This document shows positions 3,411 to 61,924 of a DNA stretch of 64,000 nt, in pieces; the first letter of the stretch is position 1; each line of letters begins with the position of its first letter. Location of the stretch: NCBI GenBank assembly GCA_003649205.1, contig QMRC01000008.1, positions 1 to 64,000 of the forward strand, written 5' to 3'. Made by a program: the position numbers and the translations under genes. The stretch is from Thermoprotei archaeon (lineage in GTDB: Archaea > Thermoproteota > Thermoprotei > Thermoproteales > B15-G16). The notes beneath the pieces were generated by a model. The model was not told the origin of the DNA. It did no database searches and was given only the letters and a program-made list of their open reading frames with translations.

Positions 3411-3587
3411 CAAGATAGAGACTAGTGAAGTAAATTTAATAGTTTCTCTAGCTCTATGAATATCATCATCTCAAAACGATTGTTTTACTATTAGCTGATA
3501 CCACTCTTAGTAGAATCGTGAACACGAAGCAACAATGTACTTCTATTGGCAAACCCTTAAATTATCCTACTGAGCTTTACATTAGGG

Positions 3588-4292
3588 TTGGGCATGAACT
3601 CTAGAAAGATAGTAACTATAGCTCTAGCTATTCTATGCTTCATAGCTGGAATCATCTTAGGAGCAGTGATTAATACAGGAGTCAATAACGTAGCCGAAGA
3701 GAATGGAAACAGTAACTCAGTAGTAATAGGTACATTTCTTGAAGTGAGAGTGTACGATCGAGATGGTCACTTAATCAATACCTTTGTTAAAACCAATGAT
3801 TTACCATTAAAAAACTTTCTATTATTCATAATGCATTCAATGTGGTTTTATGATACATCAATACAGATTGTTAATGGGACTTGGACTACTGAAGATGGTT
3901 CTAGTGGGATGCCTTGTGATGGAAATCCACATGGTGCATACTATACTACTGTTGCGGGAATAGAATATATTTCTGTTAGAATTGAGCTTGGGAATGGAAC
4001 TACACCGCCAACAATAAATGATTACAAACTTGAGAATAAATTAGTTGATGTTCCAGTAACCTACTATTGTTTTGATGCTAACGCAACGCATATGTGGTTA
4101 ATACTTCGTGGTGTATATACTGCTACGGAGGAAATAAACATTACAGAGGTAGGTCTAGCAGTATATAGCAATTATGCCATAGGTACCGCTAGAAAGTGGA
4201 TACTATTATTTAGAGATGTAGTTCCGACAATTACTCTTCAACCAGATCAAACACTTGAGATAAGATACTACATATATGTTAGATATGCTTGA
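3588..4292 (+). CDS. N-terminally anchored protein with a phage tail/baseplate-like beta domain; paralog of 15303..16106
   Basis: N-terminal TM helix; motifs LGNGTTPPTINDYKLEN, INITEVGL and C-terminal LLFRDV..I.L......I.Y.I resemble tail-fibre N-terminal domains. Confidence 0.7.
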   Translation: MGMNSRKIVTIALAILCFIAGIILGAVINTGVNNVAEENGNSNSVVIGTFLEVRVYDRDGHLINTFVKTNDLPLKNFLLFIMHSMWFYDTSIQIVNGTWTTEDGSSGMPCDGNPHGAYYTTVAGIEYISVRIELGNGTTPPTINDYKLENKLVDVPVTYYCFDANATHMWLILRGVYTATEEINITEVGLAVYSNYAIGTARKWILLFRDVVPTITLQPDQTLEIRYYIYVRYA

Positions 4293-43401: not shown

Positions 43402-43506
43402 CTAGAGTACAAGTACCTTGATCACAGTCTTACCGTTAATCTTCTCGACATCGTAGCAGAGAAATGTCCAAGTAATTGGTGTATGTACCTTTCCTCGTTT
43501 CTCCAT
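43402..43506 (-). CDS. Small peptide (34 aa) translationally coupled to polB
   Basis: TGATG stop/start overlap; MEKRGKVHTPITWTFLCYDVEKINGKTVIKVLVL. Confidence 0.35.
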   Translation of the reverse strand: MEKRGKVHTPITWTFLCYDVEKINGKTVIKVLVL

Positions 43507-45965
43507 CATAAGATACCTATCTCCCTGAGCTTTATCTTTGTGTACTCGTGTACGCAGTTTCTAAGTATGTCTTCATCGATTCTCAGCTTATCTACCTTCA
43601 TCTTAGACTCAACAGCGAATACAACTAGGCTCTCTCCGTATATCCTACCTGTCTCCGATGGTCTTACCTTGAGCACTCTACCTTCTCTCGTCGATAGGTA
43701 GTACAGTATGTCTTCTAGCGTAATTGCGTAGATATTTCCATCATCTCCATACATCAACATGTCTGCTCTAGTGAGTTTGTTGAGTGGTCTAGCTCTCTTA
43801 CAGGGTAGGCACCTAGCTTCGAGCACTACATAGCCCTCGTAGTCTGCTAGGTTTATTCTCGGTACCTTAGGTGCCTTACGCAGAAGCTCTATCAGTGGTG
43901 CGTGCTGTGGTGTAGCGAATTGATGTACATTAGCCTTCTTCAGGTAGATAGATCTAGGTTCCTCCCATGGTGTGAAGACTCTCAGGTAGTACTTACCACG
44001 TACCTTAATCTCCCTCTTAACTGACTGCAAGTCCTTACCTATCAACCTATAGAGCTGATTTGCAGGGTACGTGAACAAGTCCTCAATATCTGCACTATCG
44101 ATGAGTTCTCTAATGAGCTTAATCCTCTCCTCGTAGCTACTCGACACTATCTTCACGAAGTTATCTGTGATTACCTTCGGCAACCTAAATCGCAGGAGGC
44201 TCTTGATGGGGCTTCCCTTGAGCACTACCTTCTTGCCCTGTAGTATGTATGACTTCCTGCTGTAGATGTACATTACGTTCCACACATCCTCTAGATCTGC
44301 CTCTAGTCCAAATCTCGACAGGTAGTCCGCTATGTCCTTTGCTAGCTTCTGAATATCTTCTCCGCTGTTCACTACCACGAATATGCTATCTGTATCGCTG
44401 TAAATTACCTTCCAACCTCTAGACCTCAAGTACTGAATCCATCCCATCTGTATCTTGTACGTGCCGTAGAAGATCTTGGTTGGGCAAGCTAGGTTCCCTA
44501 GTGGTGCAGGTGATGCTTGCTTACCTTGTACACCGTATGCTAGTGCATTCAGTACTGCCTTAATAGAGTGGTCAACTGGTTCGTACATTGGTGACTTCTT
44601 CTTGAGCTTCTTAGTTAGCTCACGTATCTTCTTCAGCTTGAGAACAGTTGCGTACAGTATACCTAGACCACTTCTCCTATCGAACTCAATTCTCTCAACC
44701 ATATCCTCAACAACACTACCGATATCTTGCATCGTTGCTTCAGGTTCCTTTACGAGCAGTGTAGGGTCTACGAAGTTTGCTAGTACGAAGCTTGGGTACA
44801 TCATCTTTATGTCGAACTGAGCTACGTTCGTGTACAGTACCTTCTCACGCTCTAGCCAAACCCTAGACGCACTTGCTCTCCACTTAACAGCTCTGTACTC
44901 AGGTACGAATCCCCTCACCTCGCACTCATGTGTGAAGAAGTACTCTGCAACCATTCCAGCAGGTAGATTCTGCAGTATCGACATCGGTATCTGTGTTAGT
45001 GCAGATAGTACTGCGATTAGCGAGAACGGAACTATCATTATCTTAGCAGTTATGACTACATCATTTATGTTGTACTTAGCTAGCTCATCTAGATTCATGG
45101 AGTTTAGTCTCTTCTTACCCTCCTTCTTGATCTTCAACTCCTCATCAGTTATACCTACCTTATCCTTCAGAACCTCAGCAACATCGTGTAGTGCCCTTGC
45201 TGAACCTATTGCAAGTGACTGACCCCACGTAGCGAGCGTCTGCGATGTATCGAATATAGCTATCTGCTCTACAGGAATTACGACACCACTTCTACGTAGT
45301 ATAGGTATGTCGAAGCCAACTATGTTATGTCCCGCAAGTAACCTATACCTATTGATCTCCTTCTCAAGTTCATCAAATTGCTTAGGTAGTTCATAGCACT
45401 GAACATCATCAGGTCTAATCTCCTCAAATGGAGTCCACACGTAAGTTGACGCTAGAATAGGCTTCTCCTCTCTAGCCTCGACATCTAGGATAAGTACCTT
45501 GAGCTTTCTGAGGTTCTGTATCGTAGATACATCAAGTACGTAGTAAAGTGGCTTAGTGTCGAAGAACTGTAGACCTAGATCCCACGAGCACCTAGCTAGG
45601 TACCTCACATTGAACATAGATGCCCTAACATCTACACCAGCTCTCTGCAGTGCGAGGACATCCCTAGCGACATCTGGTACCTGAGTTGGTAGCTGACACT
45701 TGACCTTAGCTACACCGTAATCGCTCTTAACCTCGTACCTAGAACCATGAACCTTAATTATAGGCTTCATGTCAACTTCTTCAACCTCAACAACACCACT
45801 GAACTTCTCAATCTCCTTCAGTATCTTCTTGTTCTTGTATATGACGTAGAAGTACGGTCTTATTGCTCGTACTGACGTGACATCACTATCCCTTATCAGT
45901 ATCAGTTGCTCTATCTCCTTCCTACCCTTCAATCTAGGTAGCTTGAGGTCGATATACACTCTCAA
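43506..45965 (-). CDS. polB: Family B DNA polymerase with proofreading exonuclease
   Basis: ExoI LDVE, ExoII HNIVGFD, ExoIII YNIND; PolA FDIKMMYPS, PolB KAVLNALAYG, PolC YSDTDS. Confidence 0.95.
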   Translation of the reverse strand: MRVYIDLKLPRLKGRKEIEQLILIRDSDVTSVRAIRPYFYVIYKNKKILKEIEKFSGVVEVEEVDMKPIIKVHGSRYEVKSDYGVAKVKCQLPTQVPDVARDVLALQRAGVDVRASMFNVRYLARCSWDLGLQFFDTKPLYYVLDVSTIQNLRKLKVLILDVEAREEKPILASTYVWTPFEEIRPDDVQCYELPKQFDELEKEINRYRLLAGHNIVGFDIPILRRSGVVIPVEQIAIFDTSQTLATWGQSLAIGSARALHDVAEVLKDKVGITDEELKIKKEGKKRLNSMNLDELAKYNINDVVITAKIMIVPFSLIAVLSALTQIPMSILQNLPAGMVAEYFFTHECEVRGFVPEYRAVKWRASASRVWLEREKVLYTNVAQFDIKMMYPSFVLANFVDPTLLVKEPEATMQDIGSVVEDMVERIEFDRRSGLGILYATVLKLKKIRELTKKLKKKSPMYEPVDHSIKAVLNALAYGVQGKQASPAPLGNLACPTKIFYGTYKIQMGWIQYLRSRGWKVIYSDTDSIFVVVNSGEDIQKLAKDIADYLSRFGLEADLEDVWNVMYIYSRKSYILQGKKVVLKGSPIKSLLRFRLPKVITDNFVKIVSSSYEERIKLIRELIDSADIEDLFTYPANQLYRLIGKDLQSVKREIKVRGKYYLRVFTPWEEPRSIYLKKANVHQFATPQHAPLIELLRKAPKVPRINLADYEGYVVLEARCLPCKRARPLNKLTRADMLMYGDDGNIYAITLEDILYYLSTREGRVLKVRPSETGRIYGESLVVFAVESKMKVDKLRIDEDILRNCVHEYTKIKLREIGIL

Positions 45966-49074: not shown

Positions 49075-49593
49075 GTGATGAGGGTGTGGGTCATAGCCTT
49101 TCTGAGGGTTGAGAACTTTCCAGTTAAGACACTGGTCTACAGTGTATCGCACCTCGTATCTGTGCTCTCTAGGTGTGGTGTTAGGTGTAGTAACTACGTG
49201 TCCTTCAACGACGATGAGATCTACCTTGCGAGAAATGTAGCTTATAGAAACGGTATTTACTACGCTCAACGTGGCACTAAGTACGTGAAGTTTCCTGCAA
49301 AGTTCCTTAGAGATTACCTTGTTGATTTGCTGAACTTTGTAACTAAATTCGATAGGGTTAAGACAATTCCTGAAGCAATGTCTGATCAACTGTGTGGTCG
49401 TGGTGCTGTACCTATCTACGTTGATGTTGATTACATAACATCAAATATGTACGATGTCAAGAATAGGAAAGTTGCTGGCTTTCTCCACTTTTCAATATCT
49501 CTACCCTTTCGTGGATGTAAGGATCTGGTAATGCTATTCTCTTGGAGGTTCCTAAAATATGGTAGAGAAGTACATAAGAATAAAAACAGATGA
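49075..49593 (+). CDS. Hypothetical protein upstream of the helicase
   Basis: 172-aa ORF after the conserved motif. Confidence 0.65.
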   Translation: MMRVWVIAFLRVENFPVKTLVYSVSHLVSVLSRCGVRCSNYVSFNDDEIYLARNVAYRNGIYYAQRGTKYVKFPAKFLRDYLVDLLNFVTKFDRVKTIPEAMSDQLCGRGAVPIYVDVDYITSNMYDVKNRKVAGFLHFSISLPFRGCKDLVMLFSWRFLKYGREVHKNKNR

Positions 49594-51466
49594 TATTCTC
49601 CTAAATGACTTGCTGGTACTCACTGCACCAAATGGCTTCGGGAAGACTTATGCTGTTGCTGGTGCTGTAGCTAAGTTATCCAGTATGAAGATCTTCGATA
49701 GAATATACTTCCTAGCTAATTCACAAGATGCTTGTGGATCTATTGTACAGAAGTTGAGACATCACAATGCTAAGTTAGTTATCTGGTATGAAGGTATTGA
49801 ACGTAGCTGTATGAATAAGGAACTTCTTGAAGTGGTAGAGCATTTAACTGGAGACCCATCTCTTGCATGTCTAGTATGTCCATACAGTATACTGCAACAG
49901 AGTAAGAATAGAGAAATAACTCCAGAGACCTTGGTTCGAAGGGTGTTGAAGTTCTTTGAGGAGCGTGATGTAGCTGTTATTAGGGCTAGAGATGTGAAGA
50001 TGTACTTACTACCAAATCAAGAAATCTGTGGTCACAGTGTAATTAGAGCACTTACACTAAGACCTTCTCTAGACTTTAAGATTTATCTAGAGCGACTGAA
50101 TGTAACACCGATTTTTGTGGCACCTTTCCAGCTCTTTCTAACGTACAGTACAGCACAAGTCTTCATGAAGAGTGCTGAGAGATTGAGAAAAGAGCGTAGG
50201 TACCTATTCGTATTTGATGAGGCTGATAACTTACTTCTAATGGGTAAGGTCTACACGATAGAGAAGCCAGATTTTACAGACTTTGACTACGAGATCTTGA
50301 ATAAGCTATCTCCGTCTACCTATCGTCTTAGTGCTTTCATAGATATCTATACTAAGTTATTTAACATAATTGCGGAGGGTAGGAAGGAGCTTTCTAGGTA
50401 CGATTCTAGGATTGGTGTTAGTGATATTAAGAGGCAAGTACATGAGTTACTTAGCTCAAGGACTGTTGAGCGTGTTGTTGCTGGTGTCTGTAAGCGTCTA
50501 CGTACGATACTTCTTGAGGCTTTGAAGCAGATGAAGAGGACATTTCTCTTTAGGGCTGTTGAGTCTCTAAATCCCTTCACGCTAAGATTACTTAAGAGCT
50601 ATGGTGTTCAAGAGTTTGTTAAGTACATTGACTGTGATGTTGTTCGTAGGAGAAAGGGTAGTCAGGTTGAGGAGGAGGTTACTGCTATTCGTCTTCAGAA
50701 CTTCTCAATAGTTTCCGACATGGTGTTCAGCAATGAGAAACCTATTCGTAAGAGTCAGAAGGTAGTTGTAACTGCTACGTGGTGTGATGACTTAATGCGT
50801 AGATTATTCAAGGTAGGTGCAGAGTGTGTGAGGGTTGTCCGTGCTGTACCTGATAACGTGTACTTTGGTAGATTTGTAATCTATGAAACTGGTAGTAGGG
50901 CTCTAGAATCTACAGTATATGGTAAGGGTCAGTTCACATATCGAGTACTTTACCTAATTAAGAAGGTAATAGATGTCTATGCTGAGAAGTTCGGTATGAA
51001 GCCTAGTGGTGTTCTCGTGTGGTTTATGTCTAAGAGGCAATTTAGAGCATTTCTATCAGTACTTCGAGAGAAGAGGGCTAAGATCTCGATTGAGAGCGAT
51101 GATTTAGCGAGCATTACAGTTGCTAAGGTTAAGGTGTTACTCACATACCTTGGTTCTAGGATTACCAGAGGTGTTGACCTACCTGACTACGATATCTCCA
51201 TAGTGTTAGCACCGTTTCTAAGACCTCCTAGATCCTTCGGTGCTAGATGGCTTGACTGCGACTATGCTAGAGCAATATTCGAGAGCATACAAGCAGTCAT
51301 GAGAATTGTCAGATCACCATCACCTTCTAGACCAAAGGTTGTAATGCTTGAGGATTCACTATTTAAGAGCCCATACAAGGACTATGCACCAGCATGGTTC
51401 GTAGACTTCATCAAGAGTGGAAGGAAGTTTATTGAGCTAGATCTCGTAACTGCTGTATCAATCTAG
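49559..51466 (+). CDS. Superfamily 2 helicase (XPD/DinG-like, possible Fe-S cluster)
   Basis: Walker A APNGFGKT, DEAD, TAT, TRGVDLP, QAVMRIVRS; Cys cluster after motif I. Confidence 0.85.
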   Translation: MVEKYIRIKTDDILLNDLLVLTAPNGFGKTYAVAGAVAKLSSMKIFDRIYFLANSQDACGSIVQKLRHHNAKLVIWYEGIERSCMNKELLEVVEHLTGDPSLACLVCPYSILQQSKNREITPETLVRRVLKFFEERDVAVIRARDVKMYLLPNQEICGHSVIRALTLRPSLDFKIYLERLNVTPIFVAPFQLFLTYSTAQVFMKSAERLRKERRYLFVFDEADNLLLMGKVYTIEKPDFTDFDYEILNKLSPSTYRLSAFIDIYTKLFNIIAEGRKELSRYDSRIGVSDIKRQVHELLSSRTVERVVAGVCKRLRTILLEALKQMKRTFLFRAVESLNPFTLRLLKSYGVQEFVKYIDCDVVRRRKGSQVEEEVTAIRLQNFSIVSDMVFSNEKPIRKSQKVVVTATWCDDLMRRLFKVGAECVRVVRAVPDNVYFGRFVIYETGSRALESTVYGKGQFTYRVLYLIKKVIDVYAEKFGMKPSGVLVWFMSKRQFRAFLSVLREKRAKISIESDDLASITVAKVKVLLTYLGSRITRGVDLPDYDISIVLAPFLRPPRSFGARWLDCDYARAIFESIQAVMRIVRSPSPSRPKVVMLEDSLFKSPYKDYAPAWFVDFIKSGRKFIELDLVTAVSI

Positions 51467-52425: not shown

Positions 52426-53388
52426 GTGAGTGTGTTGAGTGCGAGGGGTATTCGTGAGAGGTTGAGGGAGAAGGCTAGGGAGATTGAGGCTGAGGAGATG
52501 GAGGAGGAGAGGAGACCAGAGCTAGATCTCTACACCTTAGTCAGCATGGTGGCACCACACGAGGCATTGATGCTGTTTGGGGGTACGAGGACAGGTAAGA
52601 CTACGTTCTGTTACGTGGTCGTTAGGGAGGCAGTTGAGAAGTATGGTCTAGATGCAGTGTACATAGATACTGAGGGTAATCTACACTGGAAGCTACCTCC
52701 AAAGGCACTGTACTACCGTGTATCAGGGCTAGATGACCTAAATGCAGTGATCAATGAGGTACATAGGAAGTTGATTAGGGAGGAGATTGGGCAGAATGGT
52801 CTCGTAGTAGTAGTTGACTCTCTTGAGGCGCCTGTACTGAGGTCAGCGGGCTCTAGTAGGAGCTTCTATTACAGAGCACAGGCATTTATGACACGTACAG
52901 TGCTTGGTGATAGGTTGATCGCTATTGCTAATGAGTACTCTAAGAAGTACGATAAGCCATTTACAATACTGATAACTGAGCACGCTAGATCTGAGATCGG
53001 TCTATCTAGGTTAATTGAGCAGGCAGTGAGCAGTGCTAGGGGTGAGGAAGGTGAGGGGAGGAGGAGTAGGTTCATTCGTCCTGAGGAGGTACCTCCTGAG
53101 ATCAGGTTGCTGTACACGAGACCTAAGGGAGGTTCACTGCTGTACCTAATAAAGGACATCTGGGTTACTGAGCAACTTGAGGCATATGCTGATGAGAGTG
53201 GTTACAAGAGGACGACATGTGGTGTCTATGCATGGGGTTCGAGAGCGTATGCTAGGATGGAGAGGGTTGCAACATTGAACATAGAGACTATACCTGAGCG
53301 AGGTAGGAGGAGAGTTAGGATTACCTACAAGATACATGCAACACCAATACCCTTATTTGGTGTTGAGCCAGAGATAGCTCCTGAGTAA
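52426..53388 (+). CDS. RecA/RadA-superfamily ATPase (RadB-like)
   Basis: GGTRTGKT, YIDTEG, VVVDS, LITEH. Confidence 0.85.
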   Translation: MSVLSARGIRERLREKAREIEAEEMEEERRPELDLYTLVSMVAPHEALMLFGGTRTGKTTFCYVVVREAVEKYGLDAVYIDTEGNLHWKLPPKALYYRVSGLDDLNAVINEVHRKLIREEIGQNGLVVVVDSLEAPVLRSAGSSRSFYYRAQAFMTRTVLGDRLIAIANEYSKKYDKPFTILITEHARSEIGLSRLIEQAVSSARGEEGEGRRSRFIRPEEVPPEIRLLYTRPKGGSLLYLIKDIWVTEQLEAYADESGYKRTTCGVYAWGSRAYARMERVATLNIETIPERGRRRVRITYKIHATPIPLFGVEPEIAPE

Positions 53389-53389
53389 C

Positions 53390-54262
53390 ATGCTCAGTAA
53401 GGAGCAACCAAGCCCAATACCCTACAGATTTTTCTTCCCCTTCATCCAGTCCGTACTCTATGCAAGTAAGTTGACTCTATCTGAGCTACTTCTCCTATGT
53501 AGGAGAGAGCTTAAGATTCGTGAGGTTAGGGGAACAAACCTATATGTTGTTAGGTCTAGACTACACAAGCTAGGTTTCATAAACGTCAGCGACATATCAA
53601 GCTACGTCTACTGTCCAAGACGGTTCTGGTACATGTACAGGTTGTTAGGTGATGAGGTTAAGGGAGTGATAATATGTGATAGGTATCAGCTACGTAGACT
53701 ACTAGTCGGTACATATGCACACCTGTGCTTCAGAAACTTCGTGAACTACCTAACCTCAAAGCTCCGTTCACTAGGTGCAGATCCACATCTCTACACAGAA
53801 GACGAGCTTTACGACTACGAGTACGGTCTAGCAGGGCACGTAGATCTAGTCTACGTAGATCCACACGAGGACTACGCTGTCGTCTACGAGCTTAAGTCGA
53901 GCTACAGACGTAGAGTACACGATACCTACATTGCTCAAGTACTTAGCTACTGCTACCTAGTTGAGAAGGCTAAGGACGTAGTAGTTGATAGAGGTTACAT
54001 AGTTAACTGCTCTGGAATGTGGAGAATACCCTATGCAGGAGATGAGAGGTCACTCATAAGAGACCTACTTAAGGAAGTACGTAGATGCATCATCAAGGAT
54101 GAACCCCCTAGTGAGGAGGAATCTGCTAGAGTGGAGAACATAAATAAGTGTAGAGTCTGCGGATTCAGATGCATCTGTCTTCAAGATCTCGAAACCGAGA
54201 AGAAGCTAAGGTCTAGACTTGTCGAGGAGTTTCCTGAAATACGTAGAGTGCTGAGAAGATAG
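53390..54262 (+). CDS. cas4: Stand-alone Cas4-like (RecB family) nuclease
   Basis: VSDI..Y.YCPR, G...H, G.VDL, YELK, Q...Y, CRVCGFRCIC. Confidence 0.88.
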   Translation: MLSKEQPSPIPYRFFFPFIQSVLYASKLTLSELLLLCRRELKIREVRGTNLYVVRSRLHKLGFINVSDISSYVYCPRRFWYMYRLLGDEVKGVIICDRYQLRRLLVGTYAHLCFRNFVNYLTSKLRSLGADPHLYTEDELYDYEYGLAGHVDLVYVDPHEDYAVVYELKSSYRRRVHDTYIAQVLSYCYLVEKAKDVVVDRGYIVNCSGMWRIPYAGDERSLIRDLLKEVRRCIIKDEPPSEEESARVENINKCRVCGFRCICLQDLETEKKLRSRLVEEFPEIRRVLRR

Positions 54263-54519: not shown

Positions 54520-54891
54520 ATGAGTGGTGTAGGTACTAATGGAAAGGTATTGGAGGTTGATGTAGAGGTAGTGACGTACTTCAGGGCGAAGTTCAGGAGG
54601 AGTAGTAAGGGGTTACAGCACTATAGGTGCTTTGTTGAGTACCTTGAGAATAGACTCTTCGGTGAGCGTGGTAGGGTAGTAACCTTGAGGGCTAGGCAGT
54701 TGACGGAGTATGCTAGTCAGAGATTGAGGACGAGTGACTCCAGAGCTGGTTTCTATGCGTACCACTTCATTAAGCTGATTGGTAAGCTGTTGAAGAGAGA
54801 TGTTGAGTGCAATGGAAGAGGTACCTTTATTCAAGTGAGTAGAAGTGAACTTGAGGAGCTGGTACCAGTCTTGAGAAGTCTCGTGAGGTGA
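54520..54891 (+). CDS. Hypothetical basic protein (possible winged helix) coupled to the RAMP gene
   Basis: GTGA overlap with 54888; GGTGA RBS. Confidence 0.7.
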   Translation: MSGVGTNGKVLEVDVEVVTYFRAKFRRSSKGLQHYRCFVEYLENRLFGERGRVVTLRARQLTEYASQRLRTSDSRAGFYAYHFIKLIGKLLKRDVECNGRGTFIQVSRSELEELVPVLRSLVR

Positions 54892-55514
54892 AGTACATGA
54901 GTAGGAGTAGTGTAGGTACCACACCTAAACCACAAATTCCACACTTGATACAAGGTCAGGAGGGTGAGCTAGCTCTCCTCGTTATCTGGATGAGGACTAT
55001 TACGCCAGTCATAGCACCAGCAATGTGTAAGTCAGCTATACAGCTCTATGCTAGGATTAGGGGGCTAGAGAAGAAGTACGGTAGAGAACTCCTAGATCAC
55101 GTAGATAGGTTGTTCAAGGGATTTAAGTGCCCAATTCACGGTACAGTTGAGCCTTGTCTAGATGGTTCGACGCTGAAGTCCGTGATAAATAACTACCTGA
55201 GGTTATTCGGTAGAAAGTACATCACATACGGCATATTCTTCAGCGAGGACTCGTGCTCATGTGAAACTAGGATCATAACGACTATGAAGAAGGTTAAGAG
55301 AGGTAATAAGGAGGAGACTGTCTTAGTTAAGAACCCACTAACCTACGAATTCATCGCACCTGAGCAAGAACTTCACGGAGTCTTAGCGACAAACGACAGA
55401 GAGGTAATCAATAAACTATCGACACTTGTCAACAAGGTAGTCATCATTGGAGGAAGAGTATCGAGAGGCTTCGGTAGAGTCCTAGTTGAAAGAGTGGAAG
55501 CAGTACAAATATAA
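54888..55514 (+). CDS. Stand-alone RAMP superfamily protein (Cas7 group, Csm3/Cmr4-like)
   Basis: Four ordered RAMP motifs: MRTITPV, PCLDGSTLKSVI, YEFIAP...L.G, terminal G-rich loop IGGRVSRGFGRV. Confidence 0.8.
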   Translation: MKYMSRSSVGTTPKPQIPHLIQGQEGELALLVIWMRTITPVIAPAMCKSAIQLYARIRGLEKKYGRELLDHVDRLFKGFKCPIHGTVEPCLDGSTLKSVINNYLRLFGRKYITYGIFFSEDSCSCETRIITTMKKVKRGNKEETVLVKNPLTYEFIAPEQELHGVLATNDREVINKLSTLVNKVVIIGGRVSRGFGRVLVERVEAVQI

Positions 55515-55549
55515 AATCACACCTCTCTTTTCCTTTTTAAGAATAGAAT

Positions 55550-55980
55550 GAGGGGTGCTTACCTCGATGAAGTATCTGGAGTTGGTGATAACTAGCTATT
55601 AGTACATGCTTTACGCTATGTAGTCCTTAACTACTCATTTACCATTCTTCCTTGAATATTCATTCTATACAGTACCTTATGTAGCATAATTATATTAGAA
55701 GTTGTGTAGTGGGAATTACCTCAGTTGGAGGGGAGGTACTTGCTCCCTGATGATAAGTAGTATGCGGAGAATCCTTCGTATCAAGTAATGTATAGCGAAT
55801 CCTTCATATTGGGTATGATGTCTTTGGTACACTGTATAGTGCTCACACTTTCAAGTACCTTGCAAAATGAAGTACATTCACCATGCATACTAACATGTTG
55901 TAATTCATAAATTAGGCATTCCTAATTCATGCTAGGTTGTCATCCGTAACACATTGCTACTGTTTACCTAGTGTCCAGTG
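55550..55980 (+). ncRNA. Candidate ncRNA units 1-2 (GAGGG-stem-loop-GATGA leader)
   Basis: Leaders at 55550-55570 and 55728-55753; AGTACCTT starts 101 nt after the end of each leader; no long ORF. Confidence 0.55.
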
Positions 55981-55988
55981 TATGTGAG

Positions 55989-56330
55989 CTATATTGTGTA
56001 TGTTGGTTTCTCTAGTTCTGGTGTTGTGTTTGTGATTGGTTCAATGACTGTATCTCCAAGTATTGCATTCACTATGTTTGACGCTATGACGCATAGGTGT
56101 GCAGTTGCTGTATTTAGGTACTTAGCGAGGTCTATCAACACATTTGGGTCACTATACCTTATCTCAATAGTTGATCCACGTAGGTTCACTACAGCTCTAC
56201 CACTACACACCTTCGCAAATGTACTTAGTACCTCACGAATTATGTGCTGAATCTCAGGTTCAAGTCTGTGCATTTCGATAATTAACGAGTTCCTATCTAC
56301 CTCAACTCTAAAACCAACCTTCCTCTTCAT
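55989..56330 (-). CDS. Hypothetical protein
   Basis: 113-aa ORF. Confidence 0.6.
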   Translation of the reverse strand: MKRKVGFRVEVDRNSLIIEMHRLEPEIQHIIREVLSTFAKVCSGRAVVNLRGSTIEIRYSDPNVLIDLAKYLNTATAHLCVIASNIVNAILGDTVIEPITNTTPELEKPTYTI

Positions 56331-56389
56331 GGTACCCTGTGCACAAAGTCGTGTTAACTAATTTATATTCTCTTACCTCTAGCTAACGT

Positions 56390-56405
56390 ACTAACCCCTA
56401 ATAAA
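56390..56405 (+). promoter_or_regulatory. Conserved upstream motif ACTAACCCCTAATAAA
   Basis: Identical to the reverse complement of 48504-48519; upstream of nrdD. Confidence 0.7.
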
Positions 56406-56420
56406 TTCTTTAGGAAATAT

Positions 56421-58259
56421 ATGTTCGGTGATTCGATGAGCTTAGTAGAGCAGTACATTAAGGATCTTGACTGGGAAGTGCGGGAGAATGCTAACATGAG
56501 GAGAAGCTTCACACACCTAATAACGTACCTAGGTACCAAAGTTCTGAAGGACTACACACCAAAGGTCTTCGGTGAGAAAGCTTGGAAGTTACATTGTGAT
56601 GGCTGGATTCACATACATAAGCTTCCGTTCAGCCTATTGATACCGTACTGCTTTGGCATAAACACTGCTAAGTTACTGCTTCTAGGTCTACCTACGGAGA
56701 CAGTTGCCTCTAACCCTGCTAAGCACTTGATATCTGCTTGTGACCACATAAAATCACTGACGGTTATCATAAGCCAAGAGTTTAGTGGTGCAACTGCTCT
56801 CTCAGCAATTGACCTATACCTAGCACCGTTACTCGCAGAAGACATGAAGTTCATTGGAGATGGTAGAGTACTTGAGTGGTACGTAAAGCAAGCACTTGAG
56901 GAACTTACATGGGACATAAACTACCCGTATCGCTACGGTTATCAATCACCATTCGTGAACCTATTCATCAACTACACGTCGAGCAAGAAGATACTGGATG
57001 AACCAGCAATTGTAGGAGGTAAAGTACTTGAGAACACTAGGCTAGGTGACTACCTCGACTACGCAGAGAAGCTAATCAAGGTTTACTGCAGGTTACTTCT
57101 ACACGGTGATGCATGGGGTAGACCATTCACATTCCCAATACTGTCAATCTTCCCAACGAAGGAAATAATGGAGAGCCCCATATGGGAGGACATAGCTCTG
57201 TTAACAGCTAAGCGAGGAACATTCTATTTCCTAAATCCAAATGTCGTAAATCCAGATGACATGTTCTCAATGTGTTGTAGGCTGACTATTAACCACGCTA
57301 AGGTTGCTGTTAGGTGTAGGGGTATGTGGACTATACCTGATGAGACGGGTAGCATTGGTGTAGTCACGATTAACATGGCTAGGATCGGTATGGAGGCTGT
57401 TAAGAGAGGTGATGAGAAGTACATCTATGACCTATTGCTTGAGCTATTGGGTGAGTGTAGGAAGATTCTAACCATCATGAGGAATAGGTACTATGTGACG
57501 ATGAACGAGCTAGATATGATGCCTCTAGCTAAGAAGCTAGGTGTTAGGCTAGAGAACTTCTACAGCACTGTAGGTCTAGTAGCACTACCTGAGTTCGTTA
57601 GCGTTGTACTGCAGAGACCGAGGCTATGGTATATAGAGGATAGAGGTGTTGCTAAGGAAGTCGTGAAGATTTACAGAGACGTACTAACGTTTGTGAACAA
57701 GGTGCTTGATGAGTGGGAGAGAGAGGACAATGTGCTGTATAATGTCGAGCAGGTACCAGCAGAGTCTGCATCGTATAGGCTAGCTGTTCTAGACTATGAG
57801 AAGTATCCAGAGTTCAGGAGCTATATACCAGTTGAGGTACCTATGTACGGTAGTGAGAAGGTACCCTTCTACAGCAGTCAGAATACACCAAGCTACAGTA
57901 CGTGGGATCTGAGGCTACAGCTAGAGATTGAGTCTGAGGTACAACCGCTCTTCACAGGAGGTGTCATGAAGCACATATTCTTAGGTAGAGAGCTAAGTGT
58001 AGATGAGGTCACGAAGTTCGTTAGGCACATCACTGAGAACACGAAGATAGTGTACTTCAGCTTAACACCAGTACAGACAACATGCAATGACTGTGGCTTC
58101 TGGACAACAGGCATGTATACTAGATGTCCAAAGTGTGGAAGTGCTAAGGTAGATATCTGGAGTAGAATAGTGGGATACTACAGACCAGTGAGAATGTGGA
58201 ACATAGGTAGGAGAGCAGAATTCAGAACCAGACAACACTACATGAACATACCAATTTAA
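56421..58259 (+). CDS. nrdD: Anaerobic (class III) ribonucleoside-triphosphate reductase
   Basis: ENAN, YC, MCCRL, VPAES, CNDC...CPKC Zn site, glycyl-radical loop SRIVGYYRPV..WN.G...EF..R. Confidence 0.95.
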   Translation: MFGDSMSLVEQYIKDLDWEVRENANMRRSFTHLITYLGTKVLKDYTPKVFGEKAWKLHCDGWIHIHKLPFSLLIPYCFGINTAKLLLLGLPTETVASNPAKHLISACDHIKSLTVIISQEFSGATALSAIDLYLAPLLAEDMKFIGDGRVLEWYVKQALEELTWDINYPYRYGYQSPFVNLFINYTSSKKILDEPAIVGGKVLENTRLGDYLDYAEKLIKVYCRLLLHGDAWGRPFTFPILSIFPTKEIMESPIWEDIALLTAKRGTFYFLNPNVVNPDDMFSMCCRLTINHAKVAVRCRGMWTIPDETGSIGVVTINMARIGMEAVKRGDEKYIYDLLLELLGECRKILTIMRNRYYVTMNELDMMPLAKKLGVRLENFYSTVGLVALPEFVSVVLQRPRLWYIEDRGVAKEVVKIYRDVLTFVNKVLDEWEREDNVLYNVEQVPAESASYRLAVLDYEKYPEFRSYIPVEVPMYGSEKVPFYSSQNTPSYSTWDLRLQLEIESEVQPLFTGGVMKHIFLGRELSVDEVTKFVRHITENTKIVYFSLTPVQTTCNDCGFWTTGMYTRCPKCGSAKVDIWSRIVGYYRPVRMWNIGRRAEFRTRQHYMNIPI

Positions 58260-58290
58260 CCACCCTCGACACCTATTCTTCAAACAATCA

Positions 58291-58640
58291 GAGGGGTACA
58301 TACCTGATGAAGGACAGAGAATTCCTCTTACGCTATCATCATTTGTTCAGTTTAGTTTCATAATACTCCGTATCAGTATCCTATGGGTTATAACTCATTA
58401 TCAGTACCTTGTGCATAATACTCATTTAGTAGTTGAACACCTTTGAAAACTGCAGTAATCTCCAGCATTGTCTCCTAAGCAACCTGAGGGAGTGTATTCC
58501 TGATGAGGGATGTATTTTGCACCTTACACCTTGCGAAGTATAAAGTCCAGTATTTGAGGTATCAGGTACTCACTAGATATTTTATCCTACATTACTCATG
58601 CTATAGTGTCTGAAGTTTCCGATGAGGAATGTCCACTGAT
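58291..58640 (+). ncRNA. Candidate ncRNA units 3-4 (same leader as 55550/55728)
   Basis: GAGGGGTACATACCTGATGA (58291-58310), GAGGGAGTGTATTCCTGATGA (58486-58506); blocks shared with unit 1. Confidence 0.55.
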
Positions 58641-58735
58641 CTATACGTTGTGAACTCTAGTAGTTGATTTCGTTCTGTGTAGTACAGCTGTTTGTCTGCT
58701 CTCGGTGTGAGTCCTTATAGTTTCGGTAACTTGTA

Positions 58736-59053
58736 TTGCTGTTAGCTATGAGGTGTAGTGGTGAGAGTGCGTATGAGTTGGCTAGGAGGTTGCTGTTGAG
58801 ATCTCTCCTAGTGTTGAAGCAAGGTACGAGGAGTTCAGGGTTCTGGATAACACCGCATAAGGTAGCGAAGATCAATAAGGTGAGTGGTAGAGCAATCGGT
58901 AGATTCATACACATGTTACTGAGTGAACTTGAGAAGGAAGGACTAGTTCAAGGAATGAACACTGGTAGTAGAAGGTACTCAAAGAAGTACTACGTCAAGC
59001 TAGATAACGTAGATAAGTGCATTGAGTACTTGAGAAGAACTAAGTACCTCTAA
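58736..59053 (+). CDS. Winged-helix DNA-binding protein ending KYL
   Basis: ITPHKVAK...IGR....LSELEKEGLV......KKYYV. Confidence 0.7.
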   Translation: MLLAMRCSGESAYELARRLLLRSLLVLKQGTRSSGFWITPHKVAKINKVSGRAIGRFIHMLLSELEKEGLVQGMNTGSRRYSKKYYVKLDNVDKCIEYLRRTKYL

Positions 59054-59738: not shown

Positions 59739-61103
59739 ATGAGTGAAGCAAAGCAAGTCTCTAAGATACTTAGTGAGGAACAGCTAGCAGAACTGAGGTC
59801 TCTAGTTGAGAAGCTATTTGAGATTGAGGCTAGAGGTAGAGACATAGCATCTAGATCAGACGTACTCGATACAGTGAAGGAAGCGGAGGAGTACTTCGAT
59901 AGAGCTAATACAGATCTAACAGATCTCTTCTACCTACTATCACTCATTAGAGCTAGGTTACCTCCTGATATCAGTGAGAAGATTAAGCTAACTATAGTGC
60001 TATCTGAGATTGCTAGAAATAGTGAGGAAGCACTAGAGGATCTTGAGAGAGCTAAAGAAACAATCGCTACTACACTGGCTGAAATTCATAGAGCTAGCTG
60101 GAATAAATTTGTTGAGGGGAAGCACGAAGCATCTAAGGTACTTGACGAGCTGTACAATAGGCTTAGGGAGATTGCAGATAAGTACATACTGAAGCACAGA
60201 GCTAGGGAAGTCACTGAAGAGAGTATTAGGAAGGGTATTGAGGAGTTGAGTAAGTTATTTAGTGAGTACTGTGAATCAAAGGAGTTCGAGAAATTAGTTG
60301 GTTCATCCACTGCTATGAGCATATGTGGTAACTTGTCAATAGCTCAGCTAGGGTTGTCGTACTCTGTTGAGAGCTTCGATATGGTGAGTAAAGGTCTCGA
60401 TGTACTGGATGACCTCTGTAAGGAGGTATTCGGTAGTAGATGTACGTGGTTGCGAGGTGTGAAGACTCCATACACATTGTCGGCTCTAGTCAATGACTTC
60501 TCAGCTAGTGTACACAGATTAGCAGAGTCTCTTCGTGAGGACTTAATGAAGTTAGGTGAAGTTCGTGGAATGTGGGTAGGTAGAATCTTCGTGATGGAGA
60601 ACACAGACGAGAGATTAATCGAGTTCGCTAAGGTGTTGTCTAAGGCTTGGGAGTACGGTGATAAGTCACTGATCTACGCTCCTGAAGATGCTGAAGCTCT
60701 TGGAGGTATATGCTACGACAATAAGTGTGAACTCCGTGTTGGCTCTGCTGAGGGGCATAGAACACATGTAACTCTTCGAGATTCCGAGGTTAAGGTAGAG
60801 TACTACGATACTGATGACGATGTGAATCAGGTGATGAAGAAGCTACTTGAGGAATTTGGTGCGTGTAGTTGCAGTATAGAGTTTGAAACTGGTGTATTCT
60901 GTACATGCCCAGCAGATAGGTTGAGAGATGTAGCACCTGTACTATCGCTAGCAACATCGATGGACTACAGAATCTTCGATAAAGCGAAGTGGGGAACATA
61001 CCTCAACCTTGTGGAGGAGTGTAGAGAGAAGGTGAGGAACGATATCGAGTGGGAAGTCTGCATCTCAGAGAAGTACATTGAGGAGCTTAGGAAACACATC
61101 TAG
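59739..61103 (+). CDS. Helical hypothetical protein with a Cys-containing C-terminal domain
   Basis: 454-aa ORF, ends RKHI. Confidence 0.75.
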   Translation: MSEAKQVSKILSEEQLAELRSLVEKLFEIEARGRDIASRSDVLDTVKEAEEYFDRANTDLTDLFYLLSLIRARLPPDISEKIKLTIVLSEIARNSEEALEDLERAKETIATTLAEIHRASWNKFVEGKHEASKVLDELYNRLREIADKYILKHRAREVTEESIRKGIEELSKLFSEYCESKEFEKLVGSSTAMSICGNLSIAQLGLSYSVESFDMVSKGLDVLDDLCKEVFGSRCTWLRGVKTPYTLSALVNDFSASVHRLAESLREDLMKLGEVRGMWVGRIFVMENTDERLIEFAKVLSKAWEYGDKSLIYAPEDAEALGGICYDNKCELRVGSAEGHRTHVTLRDSEVKVEYYDTDDDVNQVMKKLLEEFGACSCSIEFETGVFCTCPADRLRDVAPVLSLATSMDYRIFDKAKWGTYLNLVEECREKVRNDIEWEVCISEKYIEELRKHI

Positions 61104-61924
61104 CTAATTACCTTGTTTATGTTGTCTATTATCCTATGTATGCTCTTCGGTGCCTTTGGGAACTTCATGTAGAATCCCTCACGTTCTAAGTACTCTCGAA
61201 GCAACTTAGCTATCTGTTTCTTCGGGACATTGACTTCTAGGTATGGCTTCACAAATTTCTTCAACCACTCTCTAGCCTTCTCGATATCCTCCTTGGTTAA
61301 CTGCTTAAAGTCTAGCTTACCACTTAGGTGTAGTGCTAGGTAGTCGATTAGTGATGGTCTGTGATAGAGCTTACCCTCGCCCCTCAATCTGTCGAGAGCT
61401 AGCTTCGTTCTGTACACAACCTCCTCCCTATATGCCTCAGCCTGAGCACCAGCTAGGCTAAATGCTATTTCTCCTACAACATCTAGGAGTGAGCAGAATA
61501 TGTCTACTAGTGCCTTGGTCAGTGACTTAGCTACGGGATTGTCTTCAGGTATCTTAATCTGTTCAAGTAGCTTAGACTTCAGCTCTGCTATGCTGGGTAT
61601 GGGATTGTTCACAAACACTACATCAAAGCCTTCACGAAGAAGCCACTTGTAGACTTCCTTCAAGTGCTCATACCTTCTAGAAAGTCTAGCTACATCGAGC
61701 ATCACTATCTTCCTTATCTTGTTCATTCTACAGAACTCAATCATTTGCTTGAAGACAGGTCTCTCGAGAGGATTCTCAGCACCAGTTATGGTCTCAGTGA
61801 AGAAGAGTGGCATGAATCCTCTCTCCCTACACCACTTCTCCAGAACAATTCTCTGATTTTCTGGATTTTCATCTGGTTGAGATATCCTTATGTAGCACGC
61901 TACGATTTCACTCATGTAGCTCAC
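61100..61924 (-). CDS. Serine recombinase (resolvase/invertase family)
   Basis: ACYIRIS (catalytic Ser), ENQ, ETITG, RPVF, DVARLSR. Confidence 0.9.
   Translation of the reverse strand: MSYMSEIVACYIRISQPDENPENQRIVLEKWCRERGFMPLFFTETITGAENPLERPVFKQMIEFCRMNKIRKIVMLDVARLSRRYEHLKEVYKWLLREGFDVVFVNNPIPSIAELKSKLLEQIKIPEDNPVAKSLTKALVDIFCSLLDVVGEIAFSLAGAQAEAYREEVVYRTKLALDRLRGEGKLYHRPSLIDYLALHLSGKLDFKQLTKEDIEKAREWLKKFVKPYLEVNVPKKQIAKLLREYLEREGFYMKFPKAPKSIHRIIDNINKVIS

Follow-up and report, generated by a model that had tools for sequence, protein, structure and literature searches.

Introduction

What are the four short hairpins that stand in two gaps of an archaeal contig, and do they belong with the small RAMP gene that ends just ahead of the first of them? 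The locus lies in a stretch of 64,000 nucleotides (nt), called the window throughout, which corresponds to positions 1 to 64,000 of the forward strand of contig QMRC01000008.1 in the Thermoprotei archaeon assembly GCA_003649205.1 (order Thermoproteales). L7Ae-bound kink-turns (K-turns) are known from ribosomes, from guide ribonucleoproteins (RNPs) and from a few mRNA operators, and RAMPs are familiar components of CRISPR effectors, in which they grip handles derived from the repeats. The recurrence of a RAMP gene together with an array of kink elements, in the window and at two further loci, points to what may be a protein–RNA module hitherto undescribed.

Four hairpins in two gaps behind a RAMP gene

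A sequence-only reading of this DNA had described four leaders of the form GA–hairpin–GAUGA. All four were found at exactly the positions that it had given, every one on the plus strand, and its leader-to-leader spacings of 178 and 195 nt are as claimed. Units 1 and 2 lie in a first gap free of open reading frames (ORFs), at 55515-55988 (+, ~475 nt), and units 3 and 4 in a second, at 58260-58735 (+, ~475 nt). Neither gap holds an ORF of at least 40 amino acids (aa) with a start codon, bar one 40-aa frame at 55788-55910, and stops are present in all frames of both. Unit 1 (GAGGGGTGCTTACCTCGATGA, 55550-55570, +) reads GA / GGGGT-GCTT-ACCTC / GAU / GA, with 5 pairs in its stem, and unit 2 (GAGGGGAGGTACTTGCTCCCTGATGA, 55728-55753, +) reads GA / GGGGAG-GTACTTG-CTCCCT / GAU / GA, with 6 pairs. 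Unit 3 (GAGGGGTACATACCTGATGA, 58291-58310, +), which reads GA / GGG(G)-loop-(A)CCT / GAU / GA, has the weakest stem, with 3 contiguous pairs; unit 4 (GAGGGAGTGTATTCCTGATGA, 58486-58506, +) reads CUGA / GGGAG-TGTA-TTCCT / GAU / GA and has 5 pairs. The base pairs were tabulated by script, the MAFFT alignments of the units being structurally inconsistent. Outside the two GAs, the flanking helix amounts to alternating pairs only in unit 1, to 3 contiguous pairs in unit 2, to 2 pairs in unit 3 and to 6/7 pairs in unit 4. The proposal that the stems differ while pairing is kept stands for the apical pairs and the loops, which vary within the window, and falls for the first three pairs, which are G-C or G·U in 4/4 units. 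Aligned in full, the four units reach 53% column identity and show no conservation beyond the leader, and the similarity between them is limited to a motif of 17-26 nt. Each GA is preceded, 39-44 nt upstream, by an A/T-rich octamer, a possible TATA box.

The clustering of the leaders was assessed with a descriptor (GA, a stem of at least 4 pairs, a loop of 3-9 nt, 0-1 nt, GATGA) on both strands of the source assembly, a metagenome-assembled genome (MAG) of 2.07 Mb referred to as G000. The descriptor matched 94 sites genome-wide, 16 of which lie outside stop-to-stop ORFs of at least 100 aa (10.5% of the DNA), and 4 of these 16 ORF-free sites are the window leaders. The other 12 sites predict 0.026 matches in 957 nt of one strand. 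The resulting Poisson P of ~2e-8 is generous, as the descriptor was shaped after the leaders had been seen; the clustering of the four leaders beyond chance is clear despite this. Three matches to a looser descriptor at C15:8961-9259 were dismissed, lying as they do inside a 631-aa gene.

The idea of testing a RAMP for binding to these RNAs, which the sequence-only reading had put forward, was apt because a small gene for a Cas7-like RAMP (208 aa, 54888-55514, +) ends 35 nt upstream of unit 1. This gene overlaps the stop of an upstream 123-aa ORF by 4 nt.

Recurrence of the array behind RAMP homologs

Two paralogous homologs of the RAMP (29% and 27% identity) occur at loci L026 and L027 of G030, a MAG from a different family of the same order. 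At L026, a row of four GACCC-loop-GGGGATGA units starts 5 nt after the RAMP stop, on the strand of the RAMP gene. These units, Ua to Ud, are GACCCATATGGGGATGA at 3513, GACCCCTACGTAGGGGGGATGA at 3611, GACCCGTATGGGGATGA at 3707 and GACCCTGTATGGGGATGA at 3797, and their spacing is regular (98, 96 and 90 nt). The pattern GACCC-N3-9-GGGGATGA has 4 matches in the 1.8-Mb G030 genome, all of them in the L026 array, and a control pattern has 0. At L027, three K-loops of the form stem-GATANATGA-stem (stem-GAUANAUGA-stem) lie behind the second homolog: CCC-GATAAATGA-GGG at 3663, GACC-GATACATGA-GGTC at 3806 and CCC-GATAGATGA-GGG at 3902. Here two nt stand in for the capped stem, leaving the GAs 5 nt apart, and the units retain the flanking helix. 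The K-loop pattern has 5 matches in the G030 genome, 3 of which constitute this array. In a blastp comparison of all ORFs of at least 50 aa, the RAMP gene was the only gene common to the window, L026 and L027. What the three loci conserve is the RAMP gene, an array of 3-4 units downstream of it on the same strand, and a tandem-GA core with an xAU bulge. Because the same pairing of gene and array recurs behind the RAMP homologs of G030, the array of the window appears to belong with its RAMP gene.

The tandem G·A/A·G pairs, formed by the GA of the non-bulged strand and the GA after the bulge, are present in 11/11 units, four each in the window and L026 and three in L027. The three-nt bulge before the bulged-strand GA reads GAU in all 8 hairpin units, with NAU in its place in the 3 K-loops. 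The canonical stem has 3-6 pairs in the 8 hairpin units, where the 3 K-loops have 5 nt between the GAs. At least 3 contiguous pairs of the flanking, non-canonical helix are found outside both GAs in 8/11 units, for a per-unit chance of ~0.05-0.06 (P ~1e-8). The three kink-proximal pairs, G-C or G·U in the window, are C-G in L026, with GA and GAUGA constant; the stem thus goes from G-rich/C-rich to C-rich/G-rich in L026, and in L027 it is lost. This anatomy supports the interpretation of the four leaders as L7Ae-type K-turn RNA motifs, with a capped canonical stem and a non-canonical helix predicted to form from the flanks. Recognition of the L7Ae type would be preferred over recognition of a hairpin by the RAMP alone, because a K-turn is exchanged for a K-loop around a constant GA core.

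Both features have precedents. The K-turn in the 5′ untranslated region (5′-UTR) of l7ae in Sulfolobus acidocaldarius (S. acidocaldarius), which is bound by L7Ae, has a GAU bulge followed by two G·A pairs (Daume et al. 2017, PMC5539422), and at the L7Ae sites of H/ACA RNAs K-turn and K-loop interchange around a constant GA core (Toffano-Nioche et al. 2015, PMC4652768). The host genome supplies positive controls for the K-turn descriptor in its own candidate guide RNAs. Three of these fold as H/ACA small RNAs (sRNAs), with a lower stem, a pocket, an upper stem, a GA-hairpin-GAUGA apex and a 3′ ACA; these canonical candidates, all unannotated and all recognized by fold, have their motifs at C1:358823-358850(-), C5:107283-107305(-) and C2:48436-48454(+). 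Three H/ACA-like candidates without a lower stem, likewise identified by fold, are at C2:208472-208496(+), C2:262194-262219(+) and C5:103864-103889(+). The host L7Ae gene is at C1:84549-84827 and a second L7Ae-family gene is on C14; neither is on C8, the contig of the window.

The RAMP protein and its family

The 208-aa protein is predicted to be a Cas7-like RAMP. It scores 26.2 bits against Pfam PF03787 (RAMPs), for which the cut-off is 22.1. PADLOC reports weak matches to Csm3 and to type III-D Cas5/Cas7, and the family profile has weak matches in the PDB, with Cas7-Cas5-Cas11 the best (E 2.9e-6), followed by Csm5, Cmr4 and III-D Cas7. An alignment of 35 members reveals the motifs AP, KYG, HLDRxF (with an invariant Asp) and GST(I/V)xGAxK, an invariant Glu, and a nearly invariant C-terminal glycine-rich loop, GGxxxxGxG. 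The Asp, which lies ~20 residues before GSxxKG, would presumably sit where Csm3 and Cmr4 have their catalytic Asp.

The family appears to be real but rare. A word-indexed search of 5.8 billion proteins returned three RAMP proteins only, those of the window and the two of G030, and a scan of genome contigs returned the same two G030 loci. A HMMER pass over 1.84 billion representatives yielded 42 proteins with E<=1e-3, of which 20 reach E<=1e-10, and almost all are 155-250 aa long; the ten members that were looked up (P0004-P0013) have metagenome sources only, and none is functionally named. No relatives beyond G030 were found in 62 genomes of the order, 120 of the class and 401 sampled from the phylum, where the matches were marginal ones to longer RAMPs, nor in IMG/VR, nor by tblastn in phage or plasmid records. 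The ESM Atlas returned small RAMP clusters only (score 0.90), which we treat as a lead only. A third, truncated copy of the gene is present in G030 at L041 1496-1743 (C120). It is near-identical to the L027 paralog for 82 codons, after which come unrelated sequence and a stop.

Comparison with known RNA families and systems

No Rfam 15 family matched the window at the gathering score, the region 55400-58800 at E<=10, or L026, L027, L044 and L045 (the last two introduced below) at E<=1, and no tRNA was found in the window. The sequence-only reading had likened the leaders to the box D′/C′ K-turn or K-loop. The kink core of that comparison survives, and it recurs behind homologous RAMP genes; the identification with an element of C/D sRNAs does not, the boxes being absent at guide distance. 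The box C′/D′ K-loop of such sRNAs shares with the units a D′-like GA, a spacer and a C′-like (U)GAUGA, and unit 4 and Ua do read CUGA...UGAUGA or GAUGA, like box D′/C′. Yet a terminal box C or D and the 12-nt guide spacing are absent from the units (0/11), whose spacer forms a real stem; 0/11 units have CTGA 9-15 nt downstream or RTGATGA within 39 nt upstream, and a box C/D sRNA was rejected.

The apical K-turn or K-loop of archaeal H/ACA sRNAs and of the H/ACA-like sRNAs of Pyrobaculum has the topology of the units (helix, GA, capped stem or loop, bulge, GA, helix), and there too the two kinds of kink are interchangeable. Productive guides of these kinds need ~10 stacked layers from the pocket to the K-turn (PMC4652768). 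Against this requirement, 10/11 units have at most 4 contiguous flanking pairs, which speaks against an H/ACA or H/ACA-like guide. The units lack the ~10-layer GA stem of such guides, and their pseudouridylation pocket, lower stem and ACA appear to be missing as well. When the four units were folded with 35-nt flanks, the minimum-energy structures had no lower stem, unlike the true H/ACA RNAs of the host.

The operator in the l7ae 5′-UTR (also found for nop5) resembles the units in being a simple hairpin K-turn with a GAU bulge and two G·A pairs, and in having a G-rich stem like a Shine-Dalgarno (SD) sequence by the bulge, near a start codon (PMC5539422). It differs in being one operator before a conserved gene, whereas the arrays described here have 3-4 tandem copies, no conserved ORF behind them and always a RAMP gene ahead of them, with a mobile element as their setting. 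According to the same source, Thermoproteales l7ae genes lack such a K-turn leader.

The CRISPR arrays that accompany type III Cas7 proteins (Csm3/Cmr4) also have a RAMP of the Cas7 kind beside tandem short structured repeats with unrelated sequence between them. The window locus has a single small RAMP and no Cas5, Cas10, Cas11, Cas6 or Cas1, and its units, of 9-26 nt, are non-identical, of K-turn type, unlike the host repeats and separated by 'spacers' of 75-170 nt. A CRISPR array, in which near-identical direct repeats of ~24-37 nt would alternate with spacers of ~30-45 nt, was rejected because a repeat finder gave short leader similarity only and the units are not near-identical direct repeats. 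Viral RNA anti-CRISPRs and solitary repeat units are likewise small structured RNAs of mobile elements that are near or related to Cas components, but those RNAs mimic host CRISPR repeats and the window units do not: aligned to the gaps, the host repeats score no higher than on shuffled sequence (P 0.2-0.96). HRAMP and ARAMP, type III derivatives that lack arrays, are examples of diverged RAMP modules outside canonical CRISPR-Cas, often with PD-(D/E)xK nucleases (PMC8730458 and PMC12669027). They are defined by diverged Cas5 and Cas7 homologs with nucleases, and ARAMP also by Cas1 (PMC8730458). Membership was rejected, as one RAMP is common to the three loci and a Cas4-like nuclease is in the window only. 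Nothing in the literature searched describes the pairing of a RAMP gene and a K-turn array.

Apart from these units, a second candidate K-turn RNA, with three hairpins, was noted at C8:75640-75760 (L044 341-461) and at C26:150-270 (L045). Between the two copies (74% identity), hairpins 1 and 3 show many compensatory changes, and the middle hairpin, CTGACCC(A/G)AATGGGGATGA, is of the L026 unit type. The candidate has no Rfam match and no adjacent RAMP gene, and a further K-loop-like hairpin follows at C8:75800-75856. A 19-nt pattern derived from this element matched one IMG/VR contig, in coding DNA, chance-like and with no RAMP, and was set aside. A solitary host CRISPR repeat, GAAACAAACATTGAAAG, occurs outside the arrays at C26:75-91 (L045) and at one site on C15. 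The C26 copy is on a 4.4-kb contig targeted by spacers, ~100 nt upstream of the K-turn element, and may represent a solitary repeat unit carried by a mobile element.

Unit bodies and the variant strain

Beyond the leaders, the sequence-only reading had listed words shared between the bodies of the units, all of which are at the positions it named. AGTACCTT is found at 55671, 55854 and 58403, that is, 101, 101 and 93 nt past the leader ends; TTACGCTAT at 55611 and 58328; TACTCATTTA at 55632 and 58419; GAATCCTTC at 55769 and 55797; and CATAATACTC at 58359 and 58414. Their meaning as shared blocks was not borne out, for repeated k-mers are only modestly in excess, the order of the blocks is not collinear between units, and a variant strain fails to conserve one of them. 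Compared with dinucleotide shuffles, the gaps hold 27 repeated 8-mers against 12.1 (27 being reached in 4/500 shuffles), 10 repeated 9-mers against 3.2 (10 reached in 6/500) and 3 repeated 10-mers against 0.9 (3 reached in 47/500). Units 2 and 3 each hold a 28-nt tandem duplication, at 55755-55809 (74% identity) and 58365-58420 (71%), and in unit 2 the second copy ends with a loose K-turn-like site, GAATCCTTCATATTGGGTATGA (55797-55818).

The letters of the variant strain come from contigs of four DNA runs, and the counts given here cover the differences listed. Between 55601 and 55956 in gap 1 (356 nt), at least 33 differences (~9%) separate it from the window. Among those listed, none falls within 55688-55764, an island such as 0.7% of random placements produce. 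The island covers an A/T-rich, TATA-like box (~55689-55696), unit 2 and 11 nt beyond unit 2; the box at 55689-55696 may be a promoter. The AGTACCTT block of unit 1 has at least 3 changes in this strain.

Layout of the locus and its mobile-element context

The two gaps flank a 113-aa ORF without a Pfam family (55989-56330, -), which sits between the array halves, and nrdD, which encodes a 612-aa anaerobic ribonucleotide reductase (56421-58259, +; Pfam NRDD, E 1e-119) and lies between units 2 and 3. Possibly, nrdD and the 113-aa ORF were inserted into a formerly contiguous four-unit array. The gap DNA had short chance matches only in its own genome and nothing better than E=0.0025 in 60 relatives. 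Searched in six frames by tblastn against the genome, the two gaps gave a best E of 1.4 outside the locus, with no paralog, and the reading of the gaps as decayed paralogs was rejected on this result. In metagenome contig L022, an nrdD of 83% identity occurs with neither gap and without any common neighbour, and the ORF upstream of it is dissimilar to the 113-aa ORF; the nrdD of the same-genus genome G001 (56% identity) has a different gene context. The L022 gene (1468-4311) itself encodes 947 aa as compared to the 612 aa here, and the alignment spans residues 175-612 alone; an intein or some other insertion probably interrupts the N-terminal third of the L022 protein.

The G000 assembly comprises 31 contigs with 43% G+C, and the window is the first 64 kb of the 84-kb contig C8. 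G000 is the sole well-assembled member of its family among the genomes compared, and the 16S rRNA gene is absent from the assembly. Host CRISPR arrays at C1:269683-284087, C4:116611-121111 and C11:39659-43540 supply 186 spacers, 3 of which match C8, all outside the window (68036-68070, 82286-82328 and 82426-82468). Further host spacers match the small contigs C17, C20, C26 and C27, and spacer identities are 88-100%. Because spacers from its own arrays match its contigs, the MAG would appear to hold viruses or plasmids of its host, or self-targeted integrated elements. Contig C8 is, or contains, a mobile element (virus or plasmid), as host CRISPR spacers match it and its gene content agrees. 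The window encodes a diverged family B polymerase (PolB; 43506-45965, -, by family match), a helicase-like protein of 635 aa (49559-51466), a RadB-like ATPase (52426-53388), the PD-(D/E)xK nuclease Cas4 (53390-54262), two genes upstream of the RAMP gene, a serine recombinase (resolvase; 61100-61924, -), a PIN protein and many large ORFans, the majority of its large ORFs having no family assigned. The segment 41334-54262, upstream of the RAMP gene, looks like a replication and recombination set of a mobile element. A small ORF like a winged helix-turn-helix (wHTH) protein, with no family match, follows gap 2 (58736-59053). Elsewhere in the assembly, contig C3 (291,428 nt) is identical over its whole length to its own reverse complement, a perfect palindrome that is most likely an assembly artefact duplicating ~146 kb.

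Discussion

On balance, we interpret the units as K-turn or K-loop RNAs that work with the RAMP, the array transcripts being bound by host L7Ae and the RAMP binding or cutting the adjoining RNA, a proposal to which we give an even chance. Transcription of the array would accompany that of the RAMP gene or follow it. Each K-turn would nucleate the binding of host L7Ae, whereby its fold would be fixed and the RNA protected, and the RAMP would bind, and perhaps cut, the single-stranded RNA beside this handle. The outcome would be a set of small RNPs, constant in their K-turn handle and variable in their body, which might serve as guides, decoys or regulators in virus–host conflict.

Several observations weigh against this interpretation. 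The pairing of RAMP gene and array is known from three loci, two of which are paralogs of one MAG, in a family of ~42 members. The class of the protein is read from weak profile matches, and its AlphaFold2 model (pLDDT 42) is too poor for a comparison of folds. The flanking helix is weak in units 1 and 3 and in Ub, the stem of unit 3 is the short one of three contiguous pairs, the pair adjacent to the bulge is G·U in 3/4 window units, and the 5′ arm of unit 3 gains an A after 58296 in one variant contig, which tells against strict conservation of this unit. Units 3 and 4 sit behind nrdD and not directly behind the RAMP gene. The neighbours of L027 include ordinary metabolic genes, so that not every locus is clearly mobile. 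At L026, an 89-aa ORF with a hydrophobic N-terminus (3545-3814) spans Ub to Ud in one frame, in keeping with their spacings of 96 and 90 nt, and a coding reading of these three units stands as a caveat. An AUG is present in every unit, which admits a reading as tiny ORFs, and none of the sequencing runs listed as holding the locus is of RNA.

The AUG is also where the main rival begins. The units could be translational operators or leaders of small ORFs, operated by L7Ae and linked to the RAMP indirectly, an explanation that we consider unlikely and still take seriously. The small ORF would start at the AUG of GAUGA or at one shortly after it, and L7Ae on the K-turn would repress or time its translation, as it does for the l7ae mRNA. 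In every unit the AUG falls within GAUGA; the G-rich arm resembles the SD sequence of the host (GAGGTGA, enriched at -11 to -13), much as the known l7ae operator has an SD flanking its GAU bulge (PMC5539422); and several of the predicted peptides, those of unit 1 and of Ua to Ud, are hydrophobic and start M-x-Y. However, the ORFs would encode 4, 11, 12, 15, 15, 17, 18, 25, 26, 36 and 61 aa, with nothing in common beyond what the motif forces on them. The GAGGG stands at -16 or -17 from the AUG as opposed to the usual -11 to -13, the G run of L026 abuts the AUG, and the variant-strain changes in the ORFs of units 1 and 2 are non-synonymous in 4/4 cases. Above all, the pairing with a RAMP at 3/3 loci would be left unexplained. 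That pairing, with the gene directly upstream on the same strand at 3/3 loci, favours the doubtful alternative that the hairpins are the RAMP's own recognition or cleavage sites, in the manner of Cas6, with the likeness to L7Ae sites incidental and the array a precursor cut into units. A hairpin with a conserved 3′ tail is reminiscent of Cas6 substrates, and the spacing at L026 is regular. Yet the profiles favour Cas7, Csm3 or Csm5 over Cas6, and the repeats are neither near-identical nor similar to the CRISPR repeats of the host. The GA-GAUGA core also caps the H/ACA RNAs of the host, and L027 is without the hairpin while keeping the tandem-GA K-loop core and the flanking helix, which is the signature of an L7Ae-type site and not of stem recognition.

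The remaining alternatives are less probable still. We think it improbable that the units are atypical H/ACA-like guides of the Pyrobaculum type, each a K-turn hairpin with single-stranded guide flanks. Guides lacking a lower stem are described from this very order (PMC4652768), the host genome has such RNAs with the same apex, and unit 4 has 6/7 pairs in its flanking helix; but the flanking pairs of the others are too few (the limit of four contiguous pairs in 10/11 units), the folds have no lower stem, and the units are on a mobile element beside a RAMP gene. Very improbable, in our view, is that the repeats act as DNA, whether as sites for a dimeric regulator, as origin or partition repeats, or as remnants of small mobile hairpins. 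The inverted repeat in each unit, the mobile-element context and the wHTH-like ORF after gap 2 would suit such a role. It sits poorly with the location of 11/11 units on the strand of the RAMP gene, with the conservation of the asymmetric GA and GAUGA and not of the palindrome, which a K-loop replaces in L027, and with the finding of no further copies scattered through the genome. Hardly credible is the explanation of the gaps as decayed or unrecognised coding sequence, the leaders being remnants of gene starts or of peptide repeats. The three L026 units in frame inside the 89-aa ORF speak for it, against which stand the null tblastn result for the gaps, the stops in all window frames and the confinement of similarity to the motif.

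We return to the interpretation of the units as K-turn or K-loop RNAs that work with the RAMP. A bolder version of it, speculative and in our judgement a long way from probable, is that the mobile element encodes a CRISPR-independent, RNA-guided or RNA-scaffolded system, composed of a single Cas7-like RAMP and an array of RNAs with L7Ae K-turn handles, whose bodies would target RNA or sequester type III components; host L7Ae would then be the handle-binding subunit. If the units are only L7Ae-controlled leaders, this principle of control would extend to mobile elements of an order whose l7ae reportedly lacks such a leader (PMC5539422). If the RAMP and the units do work together, a lone Cas7-like RAMP with a tandem K-turn or K-loop array on mobile elements would link L7Ae-bound kink RNAs and RAMPs, two RNA–protein systems, in a compact module of one small protein and short RNAs. 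Such a module could reveal ways in which viruses that infect hyperthermophilic archaea exploit or subvert an RNA-binding protein universal among their hosts, or how RAMPs may recognize RNA without CRISPR repeats.

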